From positions 138,840-202,839 of the forward strand of contig MHLM01000001.1 in NCBI GenBank assembly GCA_001821395.1: a stretch of 64,000 nucleotides of DNA, read 5' to 3'. Both the position numbers and the translations under genes were made by a program. Shown piece by piece: positions 28,992 through 45,935 of this stretch. Numbering within the stretch: the first letter of the stretch is position 1; each line of letters starts with the position of its first letter. The DNA is from Candidatus Lloydbacteria bacterium RIFCSPHIGHO2_02_FULL_50_18. Lineage in GTDB: Bacteria; Patescibacteriota; Minisyncoccia; Phycocordibacterales; UBA6899. The notes beneath the pieces were generated by a model. That model searched no databases. It saw only the letters and a program-made list of their open reading frames with translations, and was not told where the DNA came from.

Positions 28992-29063
28992 GGCGTAGTG
29001 GCGAAGTGGTAACGCATAGATCTGCAAAATCTACATGCACCGGTCCGATTCCGGTCTACGCCT
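28992..29063 (+). tRNA. tRNA-Cys (anticodon GCA)
   Basis: Acceptor GGCGTAG/CTACGCC, anticodon loop CTGCAAA, discriminator U. Confidence 0.78.
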
Positions 29064-29064
29064 C

Positions 29065-29130
29065 CCTAAAACATTTTGTTGCAAAATGTTCGGGCGATCA
29101 TTTTGCAACAAAATGATTTAGCCATGAACA
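29065..29130. repeat. pair of mutually complementary palindromes between tRNA-Cys and tRNA-Leu
   Basis: AACATTTTGTTGCAAAATGTT and ATCATTTTGCAACAAAATGAT. Confidence 0.5.
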
Positions 29131-29136
29131 AATGCT

Positions 29137-29217
29137 GCCCGGGTGGTGAAATGGTATACACAGGAGACTTAAAATCTCCCGTCGCAAGGCATGTGGGTTC
29201 GACTCCCACCCCGGGCA
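29137..29217 (+). tRNA. tRNA-Leu (anticodon TAA)
   Basis: Acceptor GCCCGGG/CCCGGGC, anticodon loop CTTAAAA, long variable arm, T arm TGGGTTCGACTCCCA. Confidence 0.85.
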
Positions 29218-29218
29218 C

Positions 29219-29254
29219 AAAGTAAATAAATCCCTGATGGGATTTATTTACTTT
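29219..29254 (+). terminator. intrinsic terminator after tRNA-Leu(TAA)
   Basis: AAAGTAAATAAATCCCTGATGGGATTTATTTACTTT. Confidence 0.65.
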
Positions 29255-29400
29255 GTGCCCGGGAGAAAGCAAGCTGCCTTGCTTTCGCGTGGGAGTCGAA
29301 GCCCGTTTCGTTATTTGCGAAGAATTCCTATTCTGAGAAAATCGAAATGGGGTGCTGACCCAGCAAAGATCGAACCTCCCACGTTAATAGTGTAAAATGA
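29255..29400. repeat. tRNA-Leu(TAA)-flanking miniature element
   Basis: GTGCCCGGG (antisense acceptor), CTGC-loop hairpin 29264..29285, TGGGAGTCGAA (antisense T arm), conserved GAATTCCTATTCTGA...GGGGTGCTGAC module, terminal sense T-arm-like TCGAACCTCCCAC. Confidence 0.6.
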
Positions 29401-29405
29401 GTCAA

Positions 29406-29567
29406 TGAATAAAAAGATCGTCGCATCACTGACTCTCTCAATCGTTGTTTCATTTCTGATAATAGTTACTGTTTCGAATTATTTTGCTGAGAAAGAAATA
29501 GCGAACCAGCGCTCTGAATACACAACTCGAGGAATAGCCTTTGGCGAAACTCTTGCCCCGTAGGCAT
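29406..29567 (+). CDS. possible 53-aa membrane peptide
   Basis: MNKKIVASLTLSIVVSFLIIVTVSNYF... Short ORF below tracker threshold with no other support. Confidence 0.2.
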
Positions 29568-29804
29568 ACCTTTTCCATATGCATGCATGGGGCTTTGTGT
29601 TCGTGAAACCAATATAAAAAATTTGCTTGTAGATGTGGTGATCTTTTGCATTCCCACATACATTCTTGTCTATGCTTTACTTGTTTTGATAGCCAAAAGA
29701 AGATCTCGAATAGGTGACGTTTCATCAAACGTAAATTAGCCCCAGTGTTCGAATCTATTGCGAATCTTCCTTGATTTGCTATGATAGCGAAGTTAGGGAA
29801 AATT

Positions 29805-29880
29805 GCCTTCGTAGCTCAGTTGGTAGAGCAGCTCGCTCTTAACGAGACGGTCGCAGGTTCGAATCCTGCCGGGGGCACCA
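29805..29880 (+). tRNA. tRNA-Lys (anticodon CTT), CCA encoded
   Basis: Acceptor GCCTTCG/CGGGGGC, anticodon loop CTCTTAA, T arm GCAGGTTCGAATCCTGC. Confidence 0.85.
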
Positions 29881-29912
29881 TAAAAAAATCCGCGACAAGC
29901 GGATTTTTTTAT
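29881..29912 (+). terminator. intrinsic terminator after tRNA-Lys
   Basis: AAAAAAATCCGCGACAAGCGGATTTTTTT. Confidence 0.7.
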
Positions 29913-30050
29913 GGTGCCCCCGAAGAAGTGCCCTGCGGCACTTCTGGCAGGATTCGAAGCCGTTCTCCCATATTTCTGAATGATTCATATCATGAGGAAA
30001 TGGGAAACGGGTACTGACGCAGTAGGCGTCGAAACTCCTGCCGTGAGATT
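29913..30050. repeat. tRNA-Lys-flanking miniature element
   Basis: TGGTGCCCCCG (antisense 3' end including CCA), CTGC hairpin (GAAGTGCCCTGCGGCACTTC), GGCAGGATTCGAA (antisense T arm), GCCGTTCTCCCATATTTCTGA...GGTACTGACGCAGTAGGCGTCGAAACTCCTGCC. Confidence 0.6.
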
Positions 30051-30250
30051 TCAAAAGACTGAGTATATTTCGCATGCCTGCGCATGCAGGTCTTCAAAAT
30101 ACGAAACCCAACATGCAGAGCTTGTCTTCGTGTCCCCAATGGCATCGGTGTGATTTCGCACTTGCGAACAAGTCTATGAGAACCCAACTGATGTCGGTTT
30201 ATTCTTCCACTTCCCTTTTATCCAAATTCCAGTACTATAGCCCTACACCC

Positions 30251-30332
30251 TGCCCAGGTGGCGTAATTGGTAGCCGCGCCAGTCTTAGGAACTGGTCTCG
30301 CAAGAGGTGGAGGTTCAAGTCCTCTCCTGGGC
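30251..30332 (+). tRNA. tRNA-Leu (anticodon TAG)
   Basis: Acceptor GCCCAGG/CCTGGGC, anticodon loop CTTAGGA, long variable arm, T arm GAGGTTCAAGTCCTC. Confidence 0.85.
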
Positions 30333-30334
30333 AC

Positions 30335-30619: not shown

Positions 30620-32347
30620 TCATTCATTTCCCATCAATTCGTTTATTTTAGCCGAAGTGGTTTTACCAACATATCCGGTCCCCCTAACAAGACCCCAGGG
30701 CGCTAAAACATCTTCGGTATATTTTTCTTGGAATTTTATAACTGCTTTATAAGTCAAGAGGCCGAAATAATCAGTTTCCTTACCCGGAGAGCCAACACCC
30801 GAATCAGCCAATCGAGTATCGGGGTCGGAATTGAGGAAAATTTGCAAGCGTTTTATGTCTGCATTTGTTTGTCGGTATTGTCGGTATTGAGTAAATGGGT
30901 TAGTAAATGGCAAAATATTTATTCGCAAATTTTCCGTTACAGTAGTACCCGATCTTAGAACGATTATGCTTGAAGCAGTATCTGATGATCTGCCGTAGGC
31001 AGTGTAAAATTTAACATAAACGGTATATTGTCCATCCGGACAGATTAGATTTTTAAGTGTACCGCCAAATTTTGAGCATAAGTCCCATAGCTTGAAGGCG
31101 ACATAATCTTCTCGGCTGGCATCAGTGAAATCTCCAGTCATTGAAATCGCCAATTGCTTGATGTCCATTCCCGCATTAAAACCAAGTATGACATTTCTAT
31201 TTGACGTTGTGCTTGATCCGGAATTTACAAAAACCTTAAATCCACCTGTCGGCGTTATCGGCAAATTACTCCAACCTGCTGGCATACCACCTCCCCCACT
31301 TGAAGTTACAGCAGGAGTTACTAAGACGGCGTCCCAAATCAAAGTAAAATTATGAGAGTTGGAATTTCCGACGTTATCTGAGGCAGTAAAACTGATTACA
31401 TAAGTTCCGTTAGTATCGACTGAGATAGTTGTGCTCGACGCGGTACCGTCTCCAAACGTTACCGCACCAGGTCCTGAAACTTTTGCCCACTGATAAGTTG
31501 AAGCGTTCATATCGCTCCCGGAATCTGAAGCTGCAGCGACTTGAGTAAATGTAGCTCCTTTATTTTGATCATCTCCAGCACTAATGGTGGGATTTTGTTT
31601 ATCAATTTTTATGATATTTGACGATTCTGTGTTCTCAATATTCCCTAAATTATCTACTGAGTAGTACCTTATATATTGCTGACAACTAGAACCTGAGTCA
31701 CACGACAAACTAACACTTGTTCCTTCAGTGGTTGGCACGCAGCTATTATTAGTGTCAACGCAATAATATGTATGCGCTATTCCGCTTCCGCTATTATCAG
31801 ACGGGTTCAAATTAATAGTAAGATCTGAACTATGCCAATTATCATCAGCATTATCGGTTGTAGTTGGAGACGTATTTCCCACTACAATCGATTCATTAAA
31901 TGAAACGCTCCAATCGTAAAGGGGCAGTCCGGTACTGCCTGAAGATGGCGATACGCTCGTATCTGTATCTCGAATATTACCACCTACGGCAGTAGCATCG
32001 CCGGCTTGTGCGCACCAAGATGCAACAACATAGCAACTCCAGGCGTATCTCAAATGTTGATCTGTGCCAGTCGGCGTATCACTTAGAGTAATTTTTACTT
32101 GACTGTTATTATTTATAAGTTCTACTGAATCTATTGAAACACTATTGCCACCAGCCTGTGTAAATTCAAACCCATAATCAGGACGCTCCGCAACGTTGGC
32201 AGTATCAATAGCTAATGTTCCATAAGGGATATTATAATTGGCGATTATTACGTTACTCGATCTCAAAATCGATGATGGCATGAGGGGATTCCAAGTCTGT
32301 CCCTCAAACAATACTTTATCCATAACTTTTGCAAACATCTCTCCCAT
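30620..32347 (-). CDS. C-terminal portion (575 aa) of a large surface protein: SASA/esterase-like segment, Ig-like repeats, C-terminal peptidoglycan-binding domain. Separated from its N-terminal portion by a frameshift in an A8 tract.
   Basis: PG_binding_1-like C-terminus (IKRLQIFLNSDPDTRLADSGVGSPGKETDYFGLLTYKAVIKFQEKY). ATG lies inside the homopolymer context CAAGAAAAAAAATGGGAG. Confidence 0.6.
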   Translation of the reverse strand: MGEMFAKVMDKVLFEGQTWNPLMPSSILRSSNVIIANYNIPYGTLAIDTANVAERPDYGFEFTQAGGNSVSIDSVELINNNSQVKITLSDTPTGTDQHLRYAWSCYVVASWCAQAGDATAVGGNIRDTDTSVSPSSGSTGLPLYDWSVSFNESIVVGNTSPTTTDNADDNWHSSDLTINLNPSDNSGSGIAHTYYCVDTNNSCVPTTEGTSVSLSCDSGSSCQQYIRYYSVDNLGNIENTESSNIIKIDKQNPTISAGDDQNKGATFTQVAAASDSGSDMNASTYQWAKVSGPGAVTFGDGTASSTTISVDTNGTYVISFTASDNVGNSNSHNFTLIWDAVLVTPAVTSSGGGGMPAGWSNLPITPTGGFKVFVNSGSSTTSNRNVILGFNAGMDIKQLAISMTGDFTDASREDYVAFKLWDLCSKFGGTLKNLICPDGQYTVYVKFYTAYGRSSDTASSIIVLRSGTTVTENLRINILPFTNPFTQYRQYRQTNADIKRLQIFLNSDPDTRLADSGVGSPGKETDYFGLLTYKAVIKFQEKYTEDVLAPWGLVRGTGYVGKTTSAKINELMGNE

Positions 32348-34350
32348 TTTTTTTCTTGGGTATTCACGTCCATATGGAGCTTGTCCGACCGATAATGATA
32401 TTGATACTTTGGCTGGACCAAAATAATTTTTCCGGGATTATCTATATGCGCGTTTAATTGTGCTTCAGCTATTTCCCCCGTTGGCGCGGAATTCATTTGA
32501 TTTATAAATAATGGGATAGTGTCGTTACGGCTAGTCAGAGTATTAAGATCGGTTTCATAATCCAACTGCCATTCTTCAAGATAACTTTTATAATTTGCTC
32601 CGGCACCACCCACATAATCACTTTCTCCGTGAATTGAAGTAACTGCGATGGGTCGATACAGCTCGCCTAGCGTACTCTCAACGTAAGTTTTAGTTACACT
32701 TGCCTGTGTCATACCCTTGTTATACCAAGATGTCCCCTTTTTTAAACCACTGTAGTTAGTTCCACCATGTGCATGGAGGCCAACGACAATTGGACTGAGA
32801 AGATCTTCATACGCATGAAGGCTATTGGCCATTCCTGATGAGATTGTTTCCACATTACCGCCCTCTCCTTGCCCAGACTCAATTAATGGTATGAGCGGAG
32901 CAGCTGTTCCTTCAACTCCGGGGGTAAGCATAAGATTATTATAAGGCTGCGTAACGCTTATAGGCGGTGAAGCATAATAAACTACGGCCAGACTTTGCCC
33001 CGTTGACAATATCTGATAGTAGGTTGTTTGCTCATTTACCGCGAAGGAAACAGTCCCGGAATTATTTGTAAGAGCAGGAGTTGCTGACACGCTTATTATA
33101 TGAGGAGACCCACTCGTACTTGTAGGTGTATAGGTGAATGTTTTTGCATCTGACGAACCGGACCACGACAACGAAGTTGGCGCAAACGTTCCGGCACCAG
33201 TTGATGACGATGTAATCGTGCCGGTATATTCGCCATCAGGCGTCACAATAAAATTACCGGATGCTGTAGCCATCGTGCCAGACGACGGGCCGGCAAAAGT
33301 AAATGATGTAGCGGGTGGCGCAAGGGTGACGACTGAAAATTCAGAACTGTCTGCGGTTGCAGGGACGCCATCGGTAACCCTGAGCTTGTAATAATAAATC
33401 GTAGCGGGAGATAGTCCGGTATCTGATAATGTGAGCGATGTTTGTCCGCTTAAAATATTCCCAACACCCGGCGTAAAACCGCTGCTTATGCTACGGTACC
33501 ACTGATAAATATAGGGTGCTATTCCTCCTGTTGCTTCCGAAGATGAAAGATCGATACTTGAATCTGTTTTCTCCATTAAACTAATTGAGCCGGCGCTAAA
33601 AGTAGAAAACGGATATTCAAGCCCTGTGCCCGAATTGTATAAACTCGTGATCTCATCTGGAGTTAGTATTTTTTTCCAAAAACCAACAGAATCAATGCGC
33701 CCGTCCAAATACATTGTAGCACCAGAAGCCTGAAATCTCCCGATTGTAAATGCTGCGCTAGTATTTGCCGGCTCGGAACCGGCGACGCTTGTATTGGTAT
33801 ACGTATTATTAACAGTTATGGTATTAGTATGAGTGGTAGCATTGTGGCTACATGTGAGAAAATACCATTGGCCAATCTGGACTCCCCCCGTTGGAGTCAC
33901 ATATGCATCTACCGATGGAAAAGTAGAACAGCGAAACGTGTCGGAACTAACACCGTAATACAAAGCATATTCTCCGGTGCTGCCATATTTTCCAACAAAC
34001 GTCATATTTGTTGATTTGGTATCAAGATAGACCCATGCAGAAATAGTAAAATCTATACCGCCTATACTCAAACTGGGATTATCAACGATGCTTAAATATT
34101 CTGAGTTAGCCATAGTTAACTGCGCAGAATTTCCAAGTTTGCCAACTCCTTGAGTCACCGTATTGTTGTCGGTCAGATTATTTGAACTAACACTATCTGC
34201 TCGCGTACCACTTACCTCATCTAATTTCCAATAAGAAATAAGTGATGTGGATAAATCCGTTGCAAAAACATGAGAGAAAAATTGTGTGTACAACGACACC
34301 GAAATTAAAAGCAGGGCAAATATTTTAAAATTTTTTCGAAAGGTTTTCAT
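32263..34350 (-). CDS. N-terminal portion (695 aa) of the same surface protein: signal peptide, LamG/ConA-like lectin domain, Ser/Thr-rich Ig/FN3-like repeats, start of an esterase-like domain
   Basis: Signal peptide MKTFRKNFKIFALLLISVSLYTQFFSHVFA. LamG-like block (LISYWKLDEVSGTRADSVS...TISAWVYLD...MYLDGRIDSVGFW). Last about 28 codons are out-of-frame read-through after the A8 tract. Confidence 0.6.
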   Translation of the reverse strand: MKTFRKNFKIFALLLISVSLYTQFFSHVFATDLSTSLISYWKLDEVSGTRADSVSSNNLTDNNTVTQGVGKLGNSAQLTMANSEYLSIVDNPSLSIGGIDFTISAWVYLDTKSTNMTFVGKYGSTGEYALYYGVSSDTFRCSTFPSVDAYVTPTGGVQIGQWYFLTCSHNATTHTNTITVNNTYTNTSVAGSEPANTSAAFTIGRFQASGATMYLDGRIDSVGFWKKILTPDEITSLYNSGTGLEYPFSTFSAGSISLMEKTDSSIDLSSSEATGGIAPYIYQWYRSISSGFTPGVGNILSGQTSLTLSDTGLSPATIYYYKLRVTDGVPATADSSEFSVVTLAPPATSFTFAGPSSGTMATASGNFIVTPDGEYTGTITSSSTGAGTFAPTSLSWSGSSDAKTFTYTPTSTSGSPHIISVSATPALTNNSGTVSFAVNEQTTYYQILSTGQSLAVVYYASPPISVTQPYNNLMLTPGVEGTAAPLIPLIESGQGEGGNVETISSGMANSLHAYEDLLSPIVVGLHAHGGTNYSGLKKGTSWYNKGMTQASVTKTYVESTLGELYRPIAVTSIHGESDYVGGAGANYKSYLEEWQLDYETDLNTLTSRNDTIPLFINQMNSAPTGEIAEAQLNAHIDNPGKIILVQPKYQYHYRSDKLHMDVNTQEKKWERCLQKLWIKYCLRDRLGIPSCHHRF

Positions 34351-34780: not shown

Positions 34781-35767
34781 ATGACTATTTCTGAAAGCAC
34801 CTTAGACAAGGTCGGCGCAATGGGCGCTGCATTCTCTCTCATTGACCTCATTCGCGGGTTCAGCCATGGAGGCGTTCACGTCGGCGGAGGCACGGGCGGA
34901 GTAGGTTTTCTTACTTCTCTTCTCACTGTGCTCGTCAGAGTATGGGAAGAAAAAGGCGGGAGCATGAAAGACGAAAGCGAAATGCTCGAGTCAATGTTTG
35001 CAAACCCGCAAGCAAAGAATGAAAAACTCACACCGCAGGAACGTACCAAGATCGCGGCCGTCATCAAGGCGATGACTCCGGCAGAGCAGAAAGTGTTCCG
35101 CATCGCAATTTTTGTGATGGACCCCGATGTGACGACGATCGAAGTACCGGAGAAAAAAGACAAGGACGGCAAAGTCATCGCTGTAGCCGGAAAACGAACC
35201 GAAAAAACGGGAATTGATCCTCGGGTCAATGTCCTGCACGGTATCGCCGAGCACGTCCATGACAACCTCGATAACGTCACCGAAGTGGCCGAATTACTTC
35301 GCGGTACGGGGGCGCTGGGTGGAAACAACGAGGCACTTAAGTTTCTCGTCAAGGTACAAGTAGAGCTCAAAAAGCTTCTTTGCACGTTCTTCGGGGTCGA
35401 ATCCGTCGATCTTATCACCTTCGACATGGTCAAAGAAAAGGCAACCGTGCTCATCGGAAATATCGGTGTGCCGAATGCCAATTTGCCGGGACCTCCGGTC
35501 GGTCCGCTCATGCGAGTGGGTCGCCTCATCACGCCGGGGAGTTATCGCAATGCTCCTGCATCGAAAAGCGTGAAGTCCAAGAAAGAGGTAAGGTCGACGA
35601 GCCTGCTGAAGATGTTTGCAGTGGTAGCATGTATCACCGGCATCCTCGCTTACGGCTTGTACTTCGGAGCTTCAAAGTACCGAGCGTACCAAAGAGATAC
35701 TGAGATTGACAACATCATCAACGCGTATCAACCGACCAAAACGTCGGCTGAGCAGCCGATGAAATAG
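34781..35767 (+). CDS. hypothetical protein with C-terminal membrane anchor
   Basis: 328 aa. Gly-rich N-terminus, charged central region, single C-terminal TM (LLKMFAVVACITGILAYGLYFG). Confidence 0.45.
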   Translation: MTISESTLDKVGAMGAAFSLIDLIRGFSHGGVHVGGGTGGVGFLTSLLTVLVRVWEEKGGSMKDESEMLESMFANPQAKNEKLTPQERTKIAAVIKAMTPAEQKVFRIAIFVMDPDVTTIEVPEKKDKDGKVIAVAGKRTEKTGIDPRVNVLHGIAEHVHDNLDNVTEVAELLRGTGALGGNNEALKFLVKVQVELKKLLCTFFGVESVDLITFDMVKEKATVLIGNIGVPNANLPGPPVGPLMRVGRLITPGSYRNAPASKSVKSKKEVRSTSLLKMFAVVACITGILAYGLYFGASKYRAYQRDTEIDNIINAYQPTKTSAEQPMK

Positions 35768-35785
35768 GTCTCAAGGAGAAATCTC

Positions 35786-37408
35786 ATGAGTTTATGGAAA
35801 AAAGCAGGCTACGGCCTTTTGGGAATTTCGGCCATTCTCGGTCGAAGGACCCTCTCGTCCGCATACGACCGCCAGATCGAGGGCATTACCGACGCGCATA
35901 TCAAATATGTCGGCGGCGCAATGCTCTTCGGAGTTTGCGGTCTCGTGCTTAACTTCATCTTTTTGATGAATGGGATGCACGGCATGCAAACAGCGCTCTT
36001 CGGAGTTATCTGTCTTGCGTCACTGTATTACATGATCGCGCCAAAAATGAGCATTCCGCTCATCATCGCGGCCGCAGCGGTTCATGCCGGAGAGGCGAAA
36101 GATCAAGCGAAGCTCAAACTGCTCGGCGACGGAGTGAAAGACATTGTCAATCTGGCAAGTCTGGCACTCTTTTGGATCGGTGTGTACATCGTCGGAACGA
36201 TCATTGCCCCATGGGACTTGAGTTGGGAATTCTTTCTTTTCCTTCACATGTTCATCATCATGGCACTACTGCTCTTTGTGAGCGGCAAGGCATCGGTCAG
36301 CACGAAAGTGTACGATAATTGCTTCAAGTTCACCATTGCTGTGATCGTTGTCAGCGTACTCACGATCGCAATCGGACGTGAGCACGTAGGACCATTATGG
36401 GCGCAATTCTCCGCAAGCAAAACTTCTCGTATCGAGGCCAAGTTGAACGCAAGTTCGATTAAGACCGCAGACGAAGCGTCAGCCGAGTGGATTGAGAAGA
36501 ATGTTCACATCGATAAGCGGACCGGTGAGCAATTCGTCATCGTTACCGACAAGGTCACCGGCAAACAAAAACCGGTCGCCGCACAGCCCTACATTGAGAG
36601 GGAGAAGCAACGCAGGAACGAAACCATCCGCTCGGTCACGGAAAAAGGCGGAAAGACCAATGCGACAAACACGAGACAGGATAATAAGGGAGGTTACTTC
36701 TCTTATGAATACTGGAACGCAAAAGCGCATGAATGGTCGGAATCCTGGGGGGTACCACTCTTCGTCGGCATCATTGCAGTATTGGCAATGGTCGTGGCAC
36801 ACTTCATTCCCGTCATCTGGGGAGGAAAGAAACTCTTTGGAAAGTCAGGTACTGAAACGGCAAAGGTTGTTAGTACGCCGAAGGAGTCCGGAAACGGACT
36901 TGTTGCCACATTACTCGTTGCGGGTGCTCTCGTGTATATTGGCTTTCAGTATACGCAAGGTGAACGAGGAGCAAAAGCCAATATGGCACCGCAAACAAGC
37001 GTTGCGACATATGCCACACTAAAGAAAGGAGATGCCGGTCTGTGGATGGCCTACTGGAGTGACATGAACGGGCACTCCATTTACAGACTTCCTCAAGATA
37101 GATGGCATGGGCGAACTGTTTCGCTTTTGCCAGGCAGCTCTGTTTCGAATGTGTCCGACATCACGCTTGTTTTTGATCCTAATGATCCAAGTACCAATAT
37201 CTCATTTAACGGAGATTGCGTTGCCGGTAGCTACGATATTCAAAAAGAGTGCGTCGGATACTGGAGAACAGAAGTGGGGTCCGGTACTTTCAGGCTTGAA
37301 TGGTGGGGAAGCCAGGAAACATTCCACATTGCACTGTTTCCGGGACAACTGCCGGCAAAAGGACAGGCACAAGCCATCAAGGAGATACGCTTCGTAAAAA
37401 AACAATGA
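35786..37408 (+). CDS. polytopic membrane protein (about 8 TM, charged central loop and about 150-aa C-terminal extracytoplasmic beta-rich domain). Architecture resembles Gram-positive VirB6-like (TcpH/PrgH-type) proteins.
   Basis: 540 aa. TM clusters at the N-terminus and around residues 310-380. C-terminal domain rich in W/Y/G. Similarity is architectural only. Confidence 0.4.
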   Translation: MSLWKKAGYGLLGISAILGRRTLSSAYDRQIEGITDAHIKYVGGAMLFGVCGLVLNFIFLMNGMHGMQTALFGVICLASLYYMIAPKMSIPLIIAAAAVHAGEAKDQAKLKLLGDGVKDIVNLASLALFWIGVYIVGTIIAPWDLSWEFFLFLHMFIIMALLLFVSGKASVSTKVYDNCFKFTIAVIVVSVLTIAIGREHVGPLWAQFSASKTSRIEAKLNASSIKTADEASAEWIEKNVHIDKRTGEQFVIVTDKVTGKQKPVAAQPYIEREKQRRNETIRSVTEKGGKTNATNTRQDNKGGYFSYEYWNAKAHEWSESWGVPLFVGIIAVLAMVVAHFIPVIWGGKKLFGKSGTETAKVVSTPKESGNGLVATLLVAGALVYIGFQYTQGERGAKANMAPQTSVATYATLKKGDAGLWMAYWSDMNGHSIYRLPQDRWHGRTVSLLPGSSVSNVSDITLVFDPNDPSTNISFNGDCVAGSYDIQKECVGYWRTEVGSGTFRLEWWGSQETFHIALFPGQLPAKGQAQAIKEIRFVKKQ

Positions 37409-37429: not shown

Positions 37430-37464
37430 CAAAGACCAAGGCATGATTGCCTTGGTCTTTTTTT
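37430..37464. terminator. bidirectional intrinsic terminator between convergent gene 35786..37408 and the pilin array
   Basis: AAAGACCAAGGCATGATTGCCTTGGTCTTTTTTTT. Confidence 0.65.
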
Positions 37465-37492
37465 TAAAAAACAAAGTATTCAGACCTACGCC

Positions 37493-37849
37493 CTAAATAG
37501 GAACAGTTGTTTGAATAGTAGGCGCGGTACCCAGTCCGCCGAGCGGTGCAAGTCCCAATTCTGTTTGGATGAATCCGATGATCGACCAGAGCGCTACAAT
37601 CACAAAAATACCCACCATGCCCCATACGAGAAACATCCTCCCCTCCTGCACCGCCTTCTCATCATCGGCATGCCAAATGAATTTTACGACACCCCAAAAA
37701 AATACCGCAACCGCACAACCCAACAGTACGGGCATGATGGTCTGCATGAGATTAATGAGATCATCCATGATGGTGATCACCGACGTCTGAGCAAGTGCAA
37801 ATGTTGGTAAGAAAAAAAACGTACCGAGAATAAAAGATCGTTTAGACAT
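37493..37849 (-). CDS. VirB2/TrbC-like pilin paralog 1 (subfamily B)
   Basis: Sec signal peptide (FALAQTSV). Two-helix hairpin with FFWGVVKFIWHADDEKAVQEGR loop motif. Confidence 0.6.
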   Translation of the reverse strand: MSKRSFILGTFFFLPTFALAQTSVITIMDDLINLMQTIMPVLLGCAVAVFFWGVVKFIWHADDEKAVQEGRMFLVWGMVGIFVIVALWSIIGFIQTELGLAPLGGLGTAPTIQTTVPI

Positions 37850-38162
37850 AATTCATCAGCGTCATATCGCCGCCTATTGAGCTAATAAGGAATCGCATGA
37901 TACCAAACACGGCAACCATGATGAACATGCCAATGATACCCCATATCATACCGAGACGCCCCTTATCGCGCATCTCCGCATTATCCGGATTCCAGATATA
38001 CGCGACCACTCCGTAGATAAAATAGACGGTCGCGAGTGCAAAGAGCAAAGCGATGATAGGATTCAAAATATACGTCGAGATGTTGCCGACGAAAGTGAGC
38101 ACCGATGCGGGAATCGGGGGCGCAGCTGCTTCTGCTACGCTTGGAAAAAAAATGTTTAACAT
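37842..38162 (-). CDS. VirB2/TrbC-like pilin paralog 2 (subfamily B)
   Basis: Start at MLNIFFPSVAEAAAPP (tracker ORF is extended upstream). Motif YFIYGVVAYIWNPDNAEMRDKGR. Confidence 0.55.
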   Translation of the reverse strand: MLNIFFPSVAEAAAPPIPASVLTFVGNISTYILNPIIALLFALATVYFIYGVVAYIWNPDNAEMRDKGRLGMIWGIIGMFIMVAVFGIMRFLISSIGGDMTLMNYV

Positions 38163-38211
38163 GAATAAATTATAGCATCTCAATAAAAATTGACTATCCG
38201 AATGAGCAAAC

Positions 38212-38245
38212 AAAAACCCCCGAGAACATTCTCGGGGGGTTTTTG
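38212..38245. terminator. intrinsic-terminator-like hairpin inside the pilin array (between paralogs 3 and 2)
   Basis: AAAAACCCCCGAGAACATTCTCGGGGGGTTTTTG. Confidence 0.55.
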
Positions 38246-38265
38246 TAATCCTATTTTTATCAGGA

Positions 38266-38622
38266 CTAGACTCCAGGAACAGCAAATGCTGGTGGTGTTG
38301 ACGTGGTTATTGTCCCAGTCAATCCAAGCTGAGTCTGAGCCCAACCAAGAATACCCCAGAGAGCGACCATGACAAAGATCGCAACCATACCCCAGATCAT
38401 AAGCGTCTTACCCTGCTCCTTTGCGGCTTCATCGCTTGCATTAGCGATATATTTGACCAAGCCCCAAAAGAACGCAACGACCGCAAGACCCATGAGTAAT
38501 GGGATCAAAAGCGAGATAATACCCTGAACGCTGTTTACGAGATCGGCGATACCGGTGAGCACGGTTGCTGCAGAAGCAACTGCGGGACCCACAAGCATCA
38601 TTCCGATGATAAATTTCTTCAT
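38266..38622 (-). CDS. VirB2/TrbC-like pilin paralog 3 (subfamily B)
   Basis: Start at MKKFIIGMMLVGPAVASAATV. Motif FFWGLVKYIANASDEAAKEQGK. Confidence 0.6.
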   Translation of the reverse strand: MKKFIIGMMLVGPAVASAATVLTGIADLVNSVQGIISLLIPLLMGLAVVAFFWGLVKYIANASDEAAKEQGKTLMIWGMVAIFVMVALWGILGWAQTQLGLTGTITTSTPPAFAVPGV

Positions 38623-38796
38623 AGATTTGATAATAATTAATAAATACACCGCCAAAACTATAACTTAATGCTATCGCACAAACCGATGTCAAGCAATAGA
38701 AAAAAAAGATACCTGTGGATTACTGTTTCCGTTACCCGGAATCACAAAAATCGACCTCTTCACATGCCTGATGATCATATTTTTGTACGATAAGAG

Positions 38797-39159
38797 CTAA
38801 TGGATGCCGCCAGTCGAATCCACATAATCCGGTGCGCCTCCCGGCATAATCCCAAATGTATCAACAAGAAGAATTCGCACTATTCCCCATACGGAGAAGA
38901 GCACGACGAACGCGATAATCCCCCAAATGATGAATTGCTTTCCTTTTTCACGTTCAACGGGATCGTTCGCATTACCGATAAATTTTACGACGCCCCAGAA
39001 AAAGAACATGATGGCAGCGATCCAGAAAAATTGTCCGGCCTTCACCAAAATATTGTAGACAAGCACCTCGAGGTCAAAGACGTCCGTGACTTGCGCGAAA
39101 ACAAGGGATGGAGTGCCAAGAAGCGTCGCAATACCGAACTGTTTGTTTATTGTTCTCAT
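38797..39159 (-). CDS. VirB2/TrbC-like pilin paralog 4 (subfamily B)
   Basis: Signal peptide (SLVFAQVTD). Motif FFWGVVKFIGNANDPVEREKGK. Confidence 0.6.
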   Translation of the reverse strand: MRTINKQFGIATLLGTPSLVFAQVTDVFDLEVLVYNILVKAGQFFWIAAIMFFFWGVVKFIGNANDPVEREKGKQFIIWGIIAFVVLFSVWGIVRILLVDTFGIMPGGAPDYVDSTGGIH

Positions 39160-39174
39160 GAAAATAAAAAATAA

Positions 39175-39519
39175 TTATGAGGGCGTACTCAAAAAAGGAA
39201 TACCGAACGAACCTCCAAAGAGTGTTGAATTCAAGATACCGATGAGTCCCCACATCCCAAGCACAACCGCGATACCGATGATGGCCCACAGCAGATAGGG
39301 CTTGATCTCTTCGCGCCTTTTCTCATTATCTGAATTCATCATATAGAGCGCGATACCATATACGAGTCCGGCGATAAGCGCGGCAAAGAAAATGGAGATA
39401 ATGTTCTTTAAGACTCCCAAGAGCAACTCGACGAAACTCTTGAAGTCCGTCGGCGTAGTAGCGGCAAAAGTAATAAGGGGGGAACAGAAGACTAGCGTCG
39501 CAAAGATGAATTTTTTCAT
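39175..39519 (-). CDS. VirB2/TrbC-like pilin paralog 5 (subfamily B, divergent)
   Basis: Start at MKKFIFATLVFCSPLITFAATTP. Motif LVYGIALYMMNSDNEKRREEIKP. Confidence 0.55.
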   Translation of the reverse strand: MKKFIFATLVFCSPLITFAATTPTDFKSFVELLLGVLKNIISIFFAALIAGLVYGIALYMMNSDNEKRREEIKPYLLWAIIGIAVVLGMWGLIGILNSTLFGGSFGIPFLSTPS

Positions 39520-39526
39520 ATACATA

Positions 39527-39865
39527 TTAAAATAATATCGCCGTACCATATACCATGTCTGCGATGACTTTTGCACCAAGGATAATGAGCCCGCCAACGA
39601 GTGTCCACGTGAGCCAGATCTTCGCCTTCGTCACCTGCGCTTCATCCCCCCCCGCGGTGACGAACTGAAAACCAGCATAAATAATACAGCACGCGAGCGC
39701 GGGTATGCCGACCAGCTGCATGATCTCGATCAGCCAATAGATAAAATCCTGAAGCGTAAGAATTGAGGGAGCCGGATTTGATAGCAGTGTCCATGATGCA
39801 GCAAGTGAAATTCTTGGTTGCGAGAGGGTGAGTGTGGCGAAAGATACTAAGGCTGTTTTTTTCAT
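39527..39865 (-). CDS. VirB2/TrbC-like pilin paralog 6 (subfamily A; closest to the canonical Gram-positive T4SS pilin motif)
   Basis: IYAGFQFVTAGGDEAQVTKAKIWLTWTLVGGLIILGAKVIA. Confidence 0.6.
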   Translation of the reverse strand: MKKTALVSFATLTLSQPRISLAASWTLLSNPAPSILTLQDFIYWLIEIMQLVGIPALACCIIYAGFQFVTAGGDEAQVTKAKIWLTWTLVGGLIILGAKVIADMVYGTAILF

Positions 39866-39884
39866 AAAGGTATTGGGATTCAGA

Positions 39885-40244
39885 TCACAATGAGCTAATA
39901 GTCGCCTGTATCGCTGCGGCGATCACTTTCGCACCGAGCAGCACGAGTGCCCCCAACAGTGTCCACTTGAAGGTGGTACGAGCCTTCGCAATCTGCGCCT
40001 CATTGTCCCCCGCGGTCACAAAGAGAAATCCGCCATAAATGATGAACATCACAATAATGGGCACTCCGATAAGAAAAACGAGGTCGACGATAGCGAGCAG
40101 GAGATCGGGAATAGAGGTAATCCCACCGTAAGTGATCGGGTTTACATAGCTTGACGAAGCAGCAGACGCCGTATGCGTACCCATTAAAAGTCCGAGCGTT
40201 GTCAGGTTTAATGGTTTTGTTATGTAGTGTTGCATAAGTATCAT
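39885..40244 (-). CDS. VirB2/TrbC-like pilin paralog 7 (subfamily A)
   Basis: IYGGFLFVTAGDNEAQIAKARTTFKWTLLGALVLLGAKVIAAAIQ. Start at MILMQHYITKPLNL chosen. Confidence 0.55.
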   Translation of the reverse strand: MILMQHYITKPLNLTTLGLLMGTHTASAASSSYVNPITYGGITSIPDLLLAIVDLVFLIGVPIIVMFIIYGGFLFVTAGDNEAQIAKARTTFKWTLLGALVLLGAKVIAAAIQATISSL

Positions 40245-40248
40245 GAAT

Positions 40249-40722
40249 TTATGGCCCCAAGAAATTAAATGACGATCCGGTACCAAGGAAGAATTCGAGG
40301 ATGAAATTAACAGTCACCCACGCCGCAAGTGCGATAATGAGTCCCCAGAACACATTCAAGAAAACGTCGTGCGCCTGTTTGACTTGGCCTTCATTGCCAC
40401 GATTGGTCACGTAGAGAAAACCGGCATAGGCGAACATGACCGCACCCAATGGTGCTGCGATCTTGAAAATGAGGAAATTGATCACATTCTGCGCAGTCTC
40501 GATCACGTCGTTAAAATAACATTCCTCATGATTACCCGGGGTGGTAGCATTTGATGCCCAGACCAAGGGGCTCGGATCTTTGACCGCACCGTCTCCATTA
40601 ATGTCAAATCCGCAAGGAATGATCGTTGACGGTGAAGCTGCGAATACAGAGAATGGGGTCACGAGTATCAAAACACCGAGGAATATCGCAGAAACAAATC
40701 GATGAGTGACACTGTTGTGCAT
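40249..40722 (-). CDS. VirB2/TrbC-like pilin paralog 8 (subfamily A, with an extra Cys-containing N-terminal extracellular segment)
   Basis: FAYAGFLYVTNRGNEGQVKQAHDVFLNVFWGLIIALAAWV. Signal peptide VFAASPS. Confidence 0.6.
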   Translation of the reverse strand: MHNSVTHRFVSAIFLGVLILVTPFSVFAASPSTIIPCGFDINGDGAVKDPSPLVWASNATTPGNHEECYFNDVIETAQNVINFLIFKIAAPLGAVMFAYAGFLYVTNRGNEGQVKQAHDVFLNVFWGLIIALAAWVTVNFILEFFLGTGSSFNFLGP

Positions 40723-43457: not shown

Positions 43458-45935
43458 TTACAGGGTTATTAGGGAAGCGATGGAATCGCCTTCCCGCAGC
43501 TTCATGATCCGTACCCCCTGTGTCTGACGACCAAGGATCGGCACTTCTTTCAGTGTCACACGAATGACCTGGCTATTCTTTGAGATCGCAACAATCTCCC
43601 CATCGCGATCGGCGACCACAAGTCCCGTCATAATTTTTCCCGTCTTTGGTGTCACTTTTGCAGTTTTGATCCCTGACCCGCCGCGTTTCTGCACTTTATA
43701 CTCTGAGAGTTTACTCATTTTACCGTAACCCTTTTCTGAGAGCACGACAAGAAGCGGATCGGCATCGGTTTTCTTGATGACATCGGCGGTCACGATCTTA
43801 TCTTTGCCCTTCAGGTTCATACCGCGCACCCCTCCGGCGCTCCTTCCCATTTCGCGCACGTCAGAGTGCTTAAAACGGATAGACTGACCCTCTTGCGAAA
43901 CAAGGGAGATATCATCGCCCGTTTCAACAAAACGTGCGGTGAGGAGCTGGTCGTTCGGCTGAAGCTTGATCGCAATGAGTCCGCTGCGGCGCACATCGCG
44001 GAAACCGTCTGCGGCGACCTTTTTGACCACTCCGCACTCGGTCACCATAACTAAGGAGAGTTTTTCTGCTGTCTTCATCTCCTTCGGCATCGCGAGCATC
44101 GAGGTCACCGACTCGTCTCCTCCGAGCGACAGATAATTCATGATGGATTTCCCCTTTGTTGCCCGCCGCCCCTCCGGAAGCTCATAGGCTTTTATCTGGT
44201 ACGCTTTACCCTTGTCCGTAAAAAACAGGATGTCGGCGTGCGTTGATGTCGTCAAGAACATCTTCACGAAATCTTCTTCTTTCGTATCGAGATCCATCAC
44301 GCCCACTCCGCCGCGTTTCTGCGTATGATATTCCACGGGATCGGTACGCTTAATGTATCCGCCATCAGAAAAAACAAGTACGGTTTCCTTCTCCGGAATG
44401 GTGTCCTCGATGGAGATCGTCTGCACTCCGCCTTTCATGATCTTTGTACGACGCTCATCTCCATACTTCTCTTTCATTTCTATCATCTCCGCCTTGATGA
44501 CGCCCATCATCTTCTTCATACTTGCGAGGATCGACTCAAGCTCTTTGATGATCTCACTAAGTGCCTTCAGTTCATCATCGATCTTCTTGCGCTCAAGGCC
44601 TGCAAGTTTTGCAAGTTTCATTTCAAGAATTGCGGCAGCTTGCTTATCAGAGAACTTGAATTCCTTCATCAGATTTGCATGAGCGGTCGGAGTATCTTTT
44701 GAGGCCTTGATGAGTTTGATAATCGCATCAATATGGTCGAGTGCCTTTTTAAGCCCAAGTAAAATGTGCTCGCGGTCTTTTGCTTTTGCAAGATCAAACT
44801 CTGTGCGTCGCTTCACTACCGCTTTGCGATGTTTGATGAAGACCTCGAGAATACTCTTGATCGAAAGTGTCTGGGGGACTCCGTCAACAAGCCCGACCAT
44901 ATTGTAGTGGAACGTTGTTTCGATCTCGGTATGTTTGTAGAGATAGTTCAAGACTTTCTGCGGAGGTACGCCCTGCTTCAAATATACGGCAATACGAATA
45001 TCGCCCTTTGCGGACTCATCACGAAGATCTTTGATGCCTTCAAGTTTTTTCTCACGCACAAGGTCGGCGATCTTCTCGAGAAGCATCGCCTTGTTCACGC
45101 GGTACGGTAAGCTCGTGATAATGATTTCTGTTTGCCCTGCCTTCTGCTCCACGATCTCCGCCTCACCGCGGCAAACGACTCCCCCGCGCCCTGTTGCATA
45201 TGCATGACGGATATCTAACTTATTGTAGGCAACTCCACCGGTCGGAAAATCCGGACCTTTGATGAATTCGAGCAGATCCTCTCCCGTTGCCTCTGGGTTA
45301 TCGATGAGATGAGTCAATGCATCAACGACTTCACCGAGATTGTGCGGAGGGATAGAGGTCGCCATACCAACCGCAATACCCAGCGTACCGTTCAAAAGAA
45401 GATTCGGGACAACCGACGGCAATACCGAAGGTTCTTTTTTTGAACCGTCATAGTTCGGACGGAAGTCAACGGTATCCTTATCGAGGTCACGAAGTACCTC
45501 CCCCGCAATACGCGACATCTTTGCTTCCGTATAACGATATGCAGCAGCGGAGTCTCCATCGATCGAGCCAAAGTTCCCTTGACCCAAGACCAGAGGGTAG
45601 CGCATCGAGAAAAGCTGGGCCATCTTGACCATCGCATCATAGACAGATGAGTCTCCGTGGGGATGGTACGATCCGAGCACCGCACCAACCACCGTCGCTG
45701 ATTTTTTGAATCGCGCAGAGGAGGAAAGCCCCATTTCATGCATCGCATAGAGGATGCGACGATGGACGGGCTTCAGTCCATCACGCACATCGGGAAGTGC
45801 GCGGTCCACAATAACAGACATCGCGTAATCAATGAATGACTCTCGCATCTCTGTGACGATGTTGACCGGCAATACTCCAACCGTACCGATCTCCGGAGTT
45901 GGGCTTTCTTCTTTTTTTTCTACTGCTTTGCTCAT
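43458..45935 (-). CDS. gyrA: DNA gyrase subunit A
   Basis: Active-site region (AAMRYTEA), QRDR-like segment, C-terminal beta-pinwheel repeats. Confidence 0.93.

Follow-up and report, generated by a model that had tools for sequence, protein, structure and literature searches.

A predicted surface protein gene split by a frameshift at an A8 tract in a Candidatus Lloydbacteria genome

The locus and its reading frames

The DNA analysed here (referred to as the window) is a stretch of 64,000 nucleotides from contig MHLM01000001.1 (positions 138,840 to 202,839) of the assembly GCA_001821395.1, which belongs to Candidatus Lloydbacteria bacterium RIFCSPHIGHO2_02_FULL_50_18, a member of the Candidate Phyla Radiation (CPR), and the subject of this work is a gene on its minus strand (30620..34350) that is split by a frameshift at a run of eight adenines (A8). 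The gene is composed of two open reading frames (ORFs): an upstream ORF of 695 aa (32263..34350, minus strand; NCBI proteins OGZ05239.1 and OGZ10391.1) and a downstream ORF of 575 codons, counted from its first ATG (30620..32347, minus strand; OGZ05238.1 and OGZ10390.1), which is the in-frame continuation of the gene. Both ORFs lie in different frames and overlap by 85 nt, with the coordinates that had been given in a preliminary description of the sequence, and the A8 tract of the coding strand (T8 on the plus strand) is located, as stated there, at 32347..32354. The final 27 residues of the upstream ORF (WERCLQKLWIKYCLRDRLGIPSCHHRF) are read-through out of frame. The downstream ORF lacks a signal peptide of its own and, on inspection of the sequence, there is no Shine-Dalgarno-like element ahead of its ATG.

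On the coding strand the junction sequence is CCCAAG-A8-TGGGAGAGATG, with the codons ...GTG AAT ACC CAA GAA AAA AAA TGG GAG... In the frame of the upstream ORF the tract is divided as GA/A AAA AAA/TGG and contains an A_AAA_AAA heptamer, at which a -1 shift would lead to ATG GGA GAG; either this shift or one extra A gives ...QEKK MGEM... When the gene was rebuilt in silico with tract lengths from 6 to 10, a single open frame was obtained only with A9 (+1; 1243 aa) or A6 (-2; 1242 aa), and the A7 and A10 versions reached a stop after about 10 codons. The preliminary description had proposed that gain or loss of one A would restore the frame, which holds for the gain and not for the loss, and had put the product at roughly 1270 aa, a figure that has to be lowered to the 1243 aa of the A9-repaired protein. 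The fused reading that it predicted, ...NTQEKK-MGEMFAKVMDKV..., is the one produced by the extra A (repaired junction stretch, DVNTQEKKMGEMFAK), and it agrees with the orthologs described below.

All homopolymers of the window (214 runs, A/T of at least 6 and G/C of at least 5) were altered by one or two bases, and the A8 tract alone joined two long ORFs, taking the open frame from 697 to 1245 codons. Because it is the single such tract among the 214, and because homologs span the junction, the fusion geometry is not due to chance. The sole other runs with a lengthening of this type, much smaller in effect, are two A6 runs (434..439 and 505..510) near the ORF 403..864 (minus strand), where +1 or -2 extends the open frame from 181 to about 316 codons; neither this ORF nor the flanking ORF 899..1552 has a Pfam match, and the lengthening could be due to chance or to a second frameshift.

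Conservation and fold of the interrupted unit

The break falls within a two-lobed conserved unit (31880..33027, minus strand; aa 442-824 of the repaired protein), delimited from its homologs and a structural model. A 383-aa query spanning the junction retrieved 107 homologs, the top full-length matches being single proteins with 51-55% identity over 98-100% of the query; this search was word-indexed and did not list the upstream ORF itself, so its negatives carry little weight. In 31 aligned homologs (26-56% identity) the junction is traversed without a gap, so that none of the 32 sequences of the family alignment is gapped there, and the relatives found in a contig scan of reference genomes (tblastn; up to 58% identity), which did not recover the genome of the window itself, are all continuous through it. 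Among the invariant columns of the alignment are Ser12, in a T-G-Q-S motif, and His218, in a D-x-x-H motif. The former is the presumed nucleophile (aa 453 of the repaired protein; codon 32992..32994, minus strand), and the latter (D-K-L-H in the window; aa 659; codon 32374..32376, minus strand) lies nine residues ahead of the break. Past the junction, G229 and E230 are nearly invariant, and W246, P248, P251, G286, F287, Y328, G350 and D354 are invariant in the 32 sequences.

An AlphaFold model of repaired aa 442-824 (mbb827bb5b972) has a predicted local distance difference test score of 95.2 and a predicted template modelling score of 0.94, and shows an alpha/beta/alpha domain followed by a beta-sandwich, predicted to form one compact unit. 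In the model the break comes after residue 227 of the unit, within the helix 222-241, which is the last helix of the esterase domain. A Foldseek search of the PDB gave as best match the tailspike of the cyanopodophage Pan3 (9VYH; E about 1e-21, query TM-score 0.81), followed by the carbohydrate acetylesterase XAC1771 (7KMM), mammalian sialic acid esterases (8F9O and 8F9P), an acetylxylan esterase (1ZMB) and NanS (3PT5). Alignment and model together display the hallmarks of the SGNH family, namely a nucleophile serine in a GxS(N) block near the N-terminus, a DxxH block near the C-terminus and an alpha/beta/alpha fold, and the interrupted unit is, as modelled, an SGNH/SASA-type carbohydrate O-acetylesterase. 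The Pfam SASA model (PF03629) aligns to aa 502-677 of the repaired protein, ending at the junction, with 22.3 bits against a cut-off of 24.8, and precomputed matches to PF03629 are present in several homologs. The esterase-like segment had been placed in the downstream ORF in the preliminary description; its catalytic part, with the TGQS serine and the DxxH histidine, is instead encoded by the upstream ORF, and the break lies in the last helix.

The Pan3 tailspike is a closer structural match to the esterase plus beta-sandwich unit than any cellular esterase. The module is thus, by its modelled structure, common to CPR surface proteins and to receptor-destroying tailspikes of phages.

Intact orthologs

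Two close orthologs read the gene in one frame. The first (contig Ga0172367_10027034, hereafter L010) encodes an uninterrupted protein of 1350 aa with the same signal peptide, LamG domain, esterase unit and C-terminal domain; it is a single contig found with a degenerate metagenome pattern containing a variable gap, a pattern that did not recover the contigs of the source site. The second (JGI 3300045377, hereafter L009) shares 80% nucleotide and 86% aa identity with the window gene. At the junction, L009 has CAG GAA AAA CAA ATG GGA, where A5-C-A3 encodes Glu-Lys-Gln-Met, and L010 has GAA AAA CAG ATG, that is, A5-C-A-G-A. When the three are aligned, the window (GAA AAA AA- ATG) is one base short of the 9 nt found in both orthologs, where the stretch is interrupted and forms no homopolymer (GAAAAACAA or GAAAAACAG). 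Both orthologs thus have the uninterrupted frame that was to be looked for in relatives, and neither has the same tract (L009, GAAAAACAAATG; L010, GAAAAACAGATG; both in frame). In the C-terminal region, L009 and L010 group together, with the window lineage outside them.

The region 30620..34350 is, therefore, one gene split by a frameshift at the A8 tract, as the homologs and the intact L009 and L010 read through and the break lies inside one helix; the earlier claim of a single multidomain surface protein gene interrupted at this point stands. In favour of two truly separate genes that happen to overlap by 85 nt, GenBank and other gene callers annotate two proteins, and the two halves appear as separate proteins in two NCBI protein sets from metagenome-assembled genomes (MAGs), but every homolog is continuous over the break, which in the model interrupts a helix of one compact domain, and the downstream ORF lacks a signal peptide, although all its domains are of extracytoplasmic type, as well as a ribosome-binding site for its ATG. 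This explanation, which has next to no probability, was discarded as contradicted by the intact L010, the AlphaFold model and the gap-free homologs.

Reproducibility of the A8 allele

An exact protein look-up identified the two halves (OGZ05239.1/OGZ10391.1 and OGZ05238.1/OGZ10390.1) in Candidatus Lloydbacteria MAGs. The aquifer study that names Lloydbacteria, a Parcubacteria lineage of groundwater, comprised 33 samples, sequenced on Illumina HiSeq 2000 with 150-bp pairs and each assembled separately (PMC5079060). The downstream protein is present on at least 14 contigs, from which 8 loci of 7 sample/run accessions were retrieved (two contigs of JGI 3300002502, ERZ27254752, ERZ27254756, scaffolds of SAMN03842431 and SAMN03842435, and the Logan assemblies of SRR3989344 and SRR2090155). 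All 8 loci carry A8, and they are 99.6-100% identical to the window across up to 9.7 kb, and hence represent one near-clonal aquifer population. One of them (SAMN03842435 scaffold_44869) keeps A8 and has a 21-nt in-frame deletion at about 33168..33188 of the window, by which TFAPTSL is lost from the upstream ORF; the deleted stretch begins with CGT, and CGT is also found directly after it (microhomology).

It had been considered from the outset that the frameshift might be a sequencing or assembly indel, in which case the true genome would have A9 and an intact gene. Homopolymers are classic sites of indel errors, and the gene is otherwise perfectly intact; however, the reads come from paired Illumina HiSeq 2000 sequencing, a platform not prone to homopolymer errors (PMC5079060), A8 was recovered in every contig retrieved from the 7 accessions and by at least four assembly pipelines (JGI, ENA/MEGAHIT, the scaffolds of the original study and Logan), and only one of the 214 homopolymers of the window, namely A8, splits a large gene. 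An artefact is, consequently, very unlikely.

Domain architecture of the repaired protein

The repaired 1243-aa protein is composed, in this order, of a signal peptide, a LamG lectin-like domain, Ser/Thr-rich FN3-like modules, the SGNH/SASA esterase with its beta-sandwich, Cys-rich and PKD modules, and a C-terminal wall-binding-like domain. The predicted Sec signal peptide (aa 1-30, MKTFRKNFKIFALLLISVSLYTQFFSHVFA, followed by TD; 34261..34350, minus strand) was read from the translation, and the LamG domain (Laminin_G_3/concanavalin A-like lectin; aa 85-234; 33649..34098, minus strand) is matched by Pfam above the gathering score (E=8.5e-18). In the downstream ORF, a PKD or K319L-like PKD domain is matched by Pfam at aa 261-336 (repaired aa 929-1004; 31340..31567, minus strand), and a weak PG_binding_1-like segment is found at aa 512-543 (30719..30814, minus strand; 16.7 bits against the Pfam cut-off of 23). 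The C-terminal 200 aa are well conserved across orthologs; when the last 126 aa were searched against PDB sequences, the only matches were to kinases and due to chance, and hence the assignment to peptidoglycan binding stays weak. The signal peptide, LamG and PKD domains are in agreement with what had been recognized before, and the peptidoglycan-binding domain described at the C-terminus falls below the Pfam threshold. Taken as a whole, the gene encodes a predicted secreted and probably wall-associated protein, in which a LamG lectin is combined with a carbohydrate O-acetylesterase and with Ig-like modules.

The region 30620..32000 (minus strand), between the esterase unit and the conserved final 200 aa or so, has a modular make-up: a Cys-rich module and PKD are found in the window, and in the alignment the insert is much longer in L010 and shorter in L009, the sole Pfam match recorded there being a weak Flg_new_2 on the L009 protein. 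This suggests domain shuffling among otherwise close orthologs.

Origin and consequences of the frameshift

The most probable explanation, although held with only fair assurance, is that a recent one-base deletion, now fixed in this population, has abolished or severely impaired the function of a large surface lectin/esterase gene. In a one-step path, an ancestral A5-C-A3 like that of L009 would lose its C and yield exactly A8, so that the homopolymer would be a by-product of the inactivating mutation and not an evolved switch; in a two-step path, a C>A change would give A9 and one slippage would then lead to A8. The main product would be a secreted fragment of 695 aa that keeps the serine and histidine motifs of the catalytic site and lacks most of the last helix of the esterase, the beta-sandwich, the PKD modules and the C-terminal anchor, and the downstream 575 codons would be left with no signal peptide and no evident ribosome-binding site. 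A fragment truncated in this way, together with a downstream part devoid of export and initiation signals, points to a young pseudogene or a severe hypomorph. The indel, relative to the intact orthologs, truncates a conserved domain, as is characteristic of recent pseudogenes, and the A8 allele has been observed only in the population that is 99.6-100% identical. A scan for promoters and terminators yielded nothing beyond what shuffled sequence would give, and the downstream ORF showed no internal promoter. Given the heptamer in the right register and +1 A errors of transcription, a minor share of full-length protein may arise incidentally, and a mutation from A8 to A9 could revert the allele.

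The age of the event was addressed through the ratio of nonsynonymous to synonymous substitution rates (dN/dS). The downstream 575 codons contain no stop, and dN/dS against L010 is 0.087 in the upstream half and 0.092 in the downstream stretch aa 1040-1243; the downstream ratio is 0.117 when L009 is used instead. At aa 669-826, dN is 0.098-0.108 and dS is too saturated for a ratio. The window branch for aa 1040-1243, which includes a deep internal branch and where dS is saturated, carries more nonsynonymous changes (32, to 41 synonymous). Since dS to the orthologs is saturated (>1), all that these values indicate is a frameshift that is young in comparison with the divergence from the orthologs, or a gene that is still used; the undecayed downstream half fits a very recent event or continued function.

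Several points weigh against a fixed inactivating deletion. The perfect A_AAA_AAA heptamer in the exact -1 register would be a coincidence, although this register is a natural consequence if the deletion of the C made the run. The lack of any decay in the downstream half also fits continued expression, and dN/dS cannot date the frameshift while dS is saturated. The uniformity of A8 was established at the level of consensus assemblies, where minority A9 cells are invisible. Finally, as it branches outside L009 and L010 in the C-terminal region, the window lineage may have had an ancestral A9 (Lys), in which case the tract would predate the frameshift.

The preliminary description had interpreted the tract as a contingency locus. 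In such a phase-variable gene, reversible slippage during replication between A8 (OFF) and A9 (ON) would let subpopulations display or hide a wall-anchored lectin/esterase, the OFF state dominating the sampled communities. A homopolymer does shift the frame inside a gene predicted to code for a surface determinant (signal peptide, LamG, esterase fold, PKD and a wall-binding-like C-terminus), one extra A gives a fully intact frame of 1243 aa, the downstream half is undecayed (dN/dS about 0.1) and consensus assemblies hide minority variants. However, the tract is absent from both close orthologs (A5-C-A3 and A5-C-A-G-A), and there is, consequently, no evidence of selection maintaining a hypermutable tract. 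Candidate phase-variable tracts are usually required to have at least 10 nt in the case of poly-A/T (PMC6321876) and at least 7 in that of poly-G/C, and A8 is below the former cut-off; furthermore, A8/T8 runs occur in the window at about chance frequency (11 against 7.6 +/- 3.6 expected), several of them being stable in intact ORFs, such as those at 9067..9074, 45912..45919 and 63444..63451, and of the two single-step changes only +1 gives ON. Tract length is invariant in the 8 loci, each of the 6 members of the two protein clusters represents a split form, and neither the exact A9 protein nor the exact A6 protein occurs in a collection of about 15 billion proteins, so that no length variant or ON allele appeared at the consensus level in these contig loci, the clusters and the exact look-up, on which its absence rests. 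A 141-aa junction-centred query returned 2 candidates and no matches, and was uninformative, as it also missed known identical proteins. With a short tract, no polymorphism at the consensus level and no conservation in orthologs, phase variation is unlikely.

Recoding provides another way of using both ORFs: -1 frameshifting on A_AAA_AAA, or transcriptional slippage, would produce, in a set ratio, a 695-aa form that is secreted and a 1243-aa form anchored to the wall. The site has an X_XXY_YYZ heptamer in the exact zero-frame register, the downstream ORF is intact and continues in the -1 frame, and the -1 product matches the homologs; moreover, single-A insertions are the main transcription error in A/T runs and increase exponentially with run length (PMC5574713), and corrective or compensatory frameshifting of indels has been documented (PMC5009743; PMC4256274). 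Against this, A_AAA_AAA is far less shift-prone in Escherichia coli than A_AAA_AAG (PMC5009743), and the usual stimulatory elements are missing: the 92 nt after the heptamer fold with a minimum free energy of -16.5 kcal/mol against a shuffle mean of -19.4 (z=+1.03), its 201-nt context has z=+1.29, both being less stable than shuffles, and no Shine-Dalgarno-like motif is found in the 20 nt upstream. The two-frame arrangement is not conserved, since the orthologs and all other homologs use a single frame, and a short form whose catalytic domain would be missing the greater part of its last helix is hardly what would be expected of a functional isoform. Selected recoding is, for these reasons, doubtful, slightly more so than phase variation, and an incidental full-length product by slippage is plausible.

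Considered more broadly, there is a small chance that A8 works as a low-frequency switch or slippage site of some kind, by mutation, transcriptional +1 or ribosomal -1 slippage. If so, a minority of cells or molecules would display a wall-anchored LamG lectin/O-acetylesterase, perhaps attaching to or remodelling glycans of host cells, and most cells would display none; this would be, within the reach of the literature search, the first simple-repeat contingency or recoding locus in the CPR.

Neighbouring genes

Directly downstream of the frameshifted gene, and convergent with it, are four tRNA genes (28992..30334, plus strand; Cys-GCA, Leu-TAA, Lys-CTT and Leu-TAG), and an Rfam scan of the window found tRNAs only. 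The presence of tRNA-Lys(CUU) means that the organism has a dedicated AAG decoder. On the other side, two divergently oriented genes (34781..37408, plus strand) encode proteins of 328 and 540 aa with no Pfam match, whose translations contain long hydrophobic stretches, suggesting membrane proteins.

Further along, at about 37464..40722 (minus strand), there is a tandem array of small T4SS_pilin (PF18895) genes, six by Pfam scan, with an SBP_bac_1 solute-binding protein gene and a methyltransferase gene upstream of it. In another assembly (L022), precomputed matches fall on nine called genes, three of them weak; short contigs from other samples (L024-L026) end soon after the first pilin gene and have the next called gene placed slightly differently, which may reflect strain heterogeneity. 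A8 runs at 37812, 38145 and 38700 and a T8 run at 37458 lie in or between the genes of the array. One 112-aa T4SS_pilin-like gene (ORF 39527..39865, minus strand) contains an in-frame G8 on its coding strand (C8 on the plus strand, 39646..39653), in the context GCG GGG GGG GAT (...VTAGGDEAQ...), and the neighbouring paralog, VTAGDNEAQ, has no such run. The tract is also G8 in L022 and L023, the two other assemblies that extend this far. Because poly-G/C of 7 or more reaches the usual cut-off, this G8 is a stronger candidate for a contingency tract than A8.

Significance and comparison with known systems

For annotation, the pairs OGZ05239.1/OGZ05238.1 and OGZ10391.1/OGZ10390.1 should be regarded as halves of one frameshifted gene and not as two proteins. 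The intact family represents a previously uncharacterised esterase plus beta-sandwich unit, common to a cyanophage tailspike and widespread in CPR and other bacteria. The case also calls for caution, as the homopolymer seen at a frameshift may have been made by the inactivating deletion and need not be a prior switch, and orthologs need to be checked before the name of contingency locus is given. Should A9 subpopulations be present in the reads, the locus would offer a first way of approaching how surface proteins vary phenotypically among uncultivated CPR episymbionts.

The esterase unit shares its fold (Foldseek probability 1.00) with 7KMM, SIAE (8F9O/8F9P), NanS (3PT5) and the esterase module of the Pan3 tailspike 9VYH, with query TM-scores of 0.81 to the latter and about 0.6 to 7KMM and 8F9P, and it has the invariant GQS serine, the DxxH histidine and the attached beta-sandwich of the SGNH/SASA family. 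It differs from the known members in that identity is only 12-18%, Pfam SASA falling below its gathering score, and it is embedded in a 1243-aa LamG/FN3/PKD surface protein.

Simple sequence repeat contingency loci of Campylobacter, Neisseria and Haemophilus likewise depend on an intragenic homopolymer that sets the frame of a surface gene (PMC6321876; PMC5953494), but the poly-A of the window has only 8 nt, is not conserved in orthologs, and yielded neither polymorphism nor an ON allele. Programmed -1 frameshifting sites, such as those of dnaX and the IS3-family transposases (PMC5009743), have in common with it the heptamer, its register and a downstream ORF in the -1 frame. Unlike them, the window has no hairpin, pseudoknot or Shine-Dalgarno-like element, and its heptamer is unconserved and a poor shifter in E. 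coli.

Poly(A) frameshifts in Buchnera and Blochmannia are reportedly rescued by transcriptional slippage (Tamas et al. 2008; Wernegreen et al. 2010). The slippage-rescued tracts of endosymbionts usually have 9-11 A or more and are conserved across diverged lineages. The window resembles such cases (Buchnera/Blochmannia, PMC3017870; Citrobacter rodentium tssM, PMC4256274) in having a frameshift in an A run, a small-genome bacterium as host, a frame restored by +1 A and an undecayed downstream part; it differs in that the run is A8 and is confined to one near-clonal population.

The closest resemblance is to frameshift pseudogenes and split genes, which show the same one-base indel, two overlapping ORFs called separately and intact relatives. 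Nothing essential differs from them, the notable features being the CPR host and, if the one-step path was followed, an A8 tract made by the deletion itself. The gene described here is most likely an ordinary young pseudogene of this kind.

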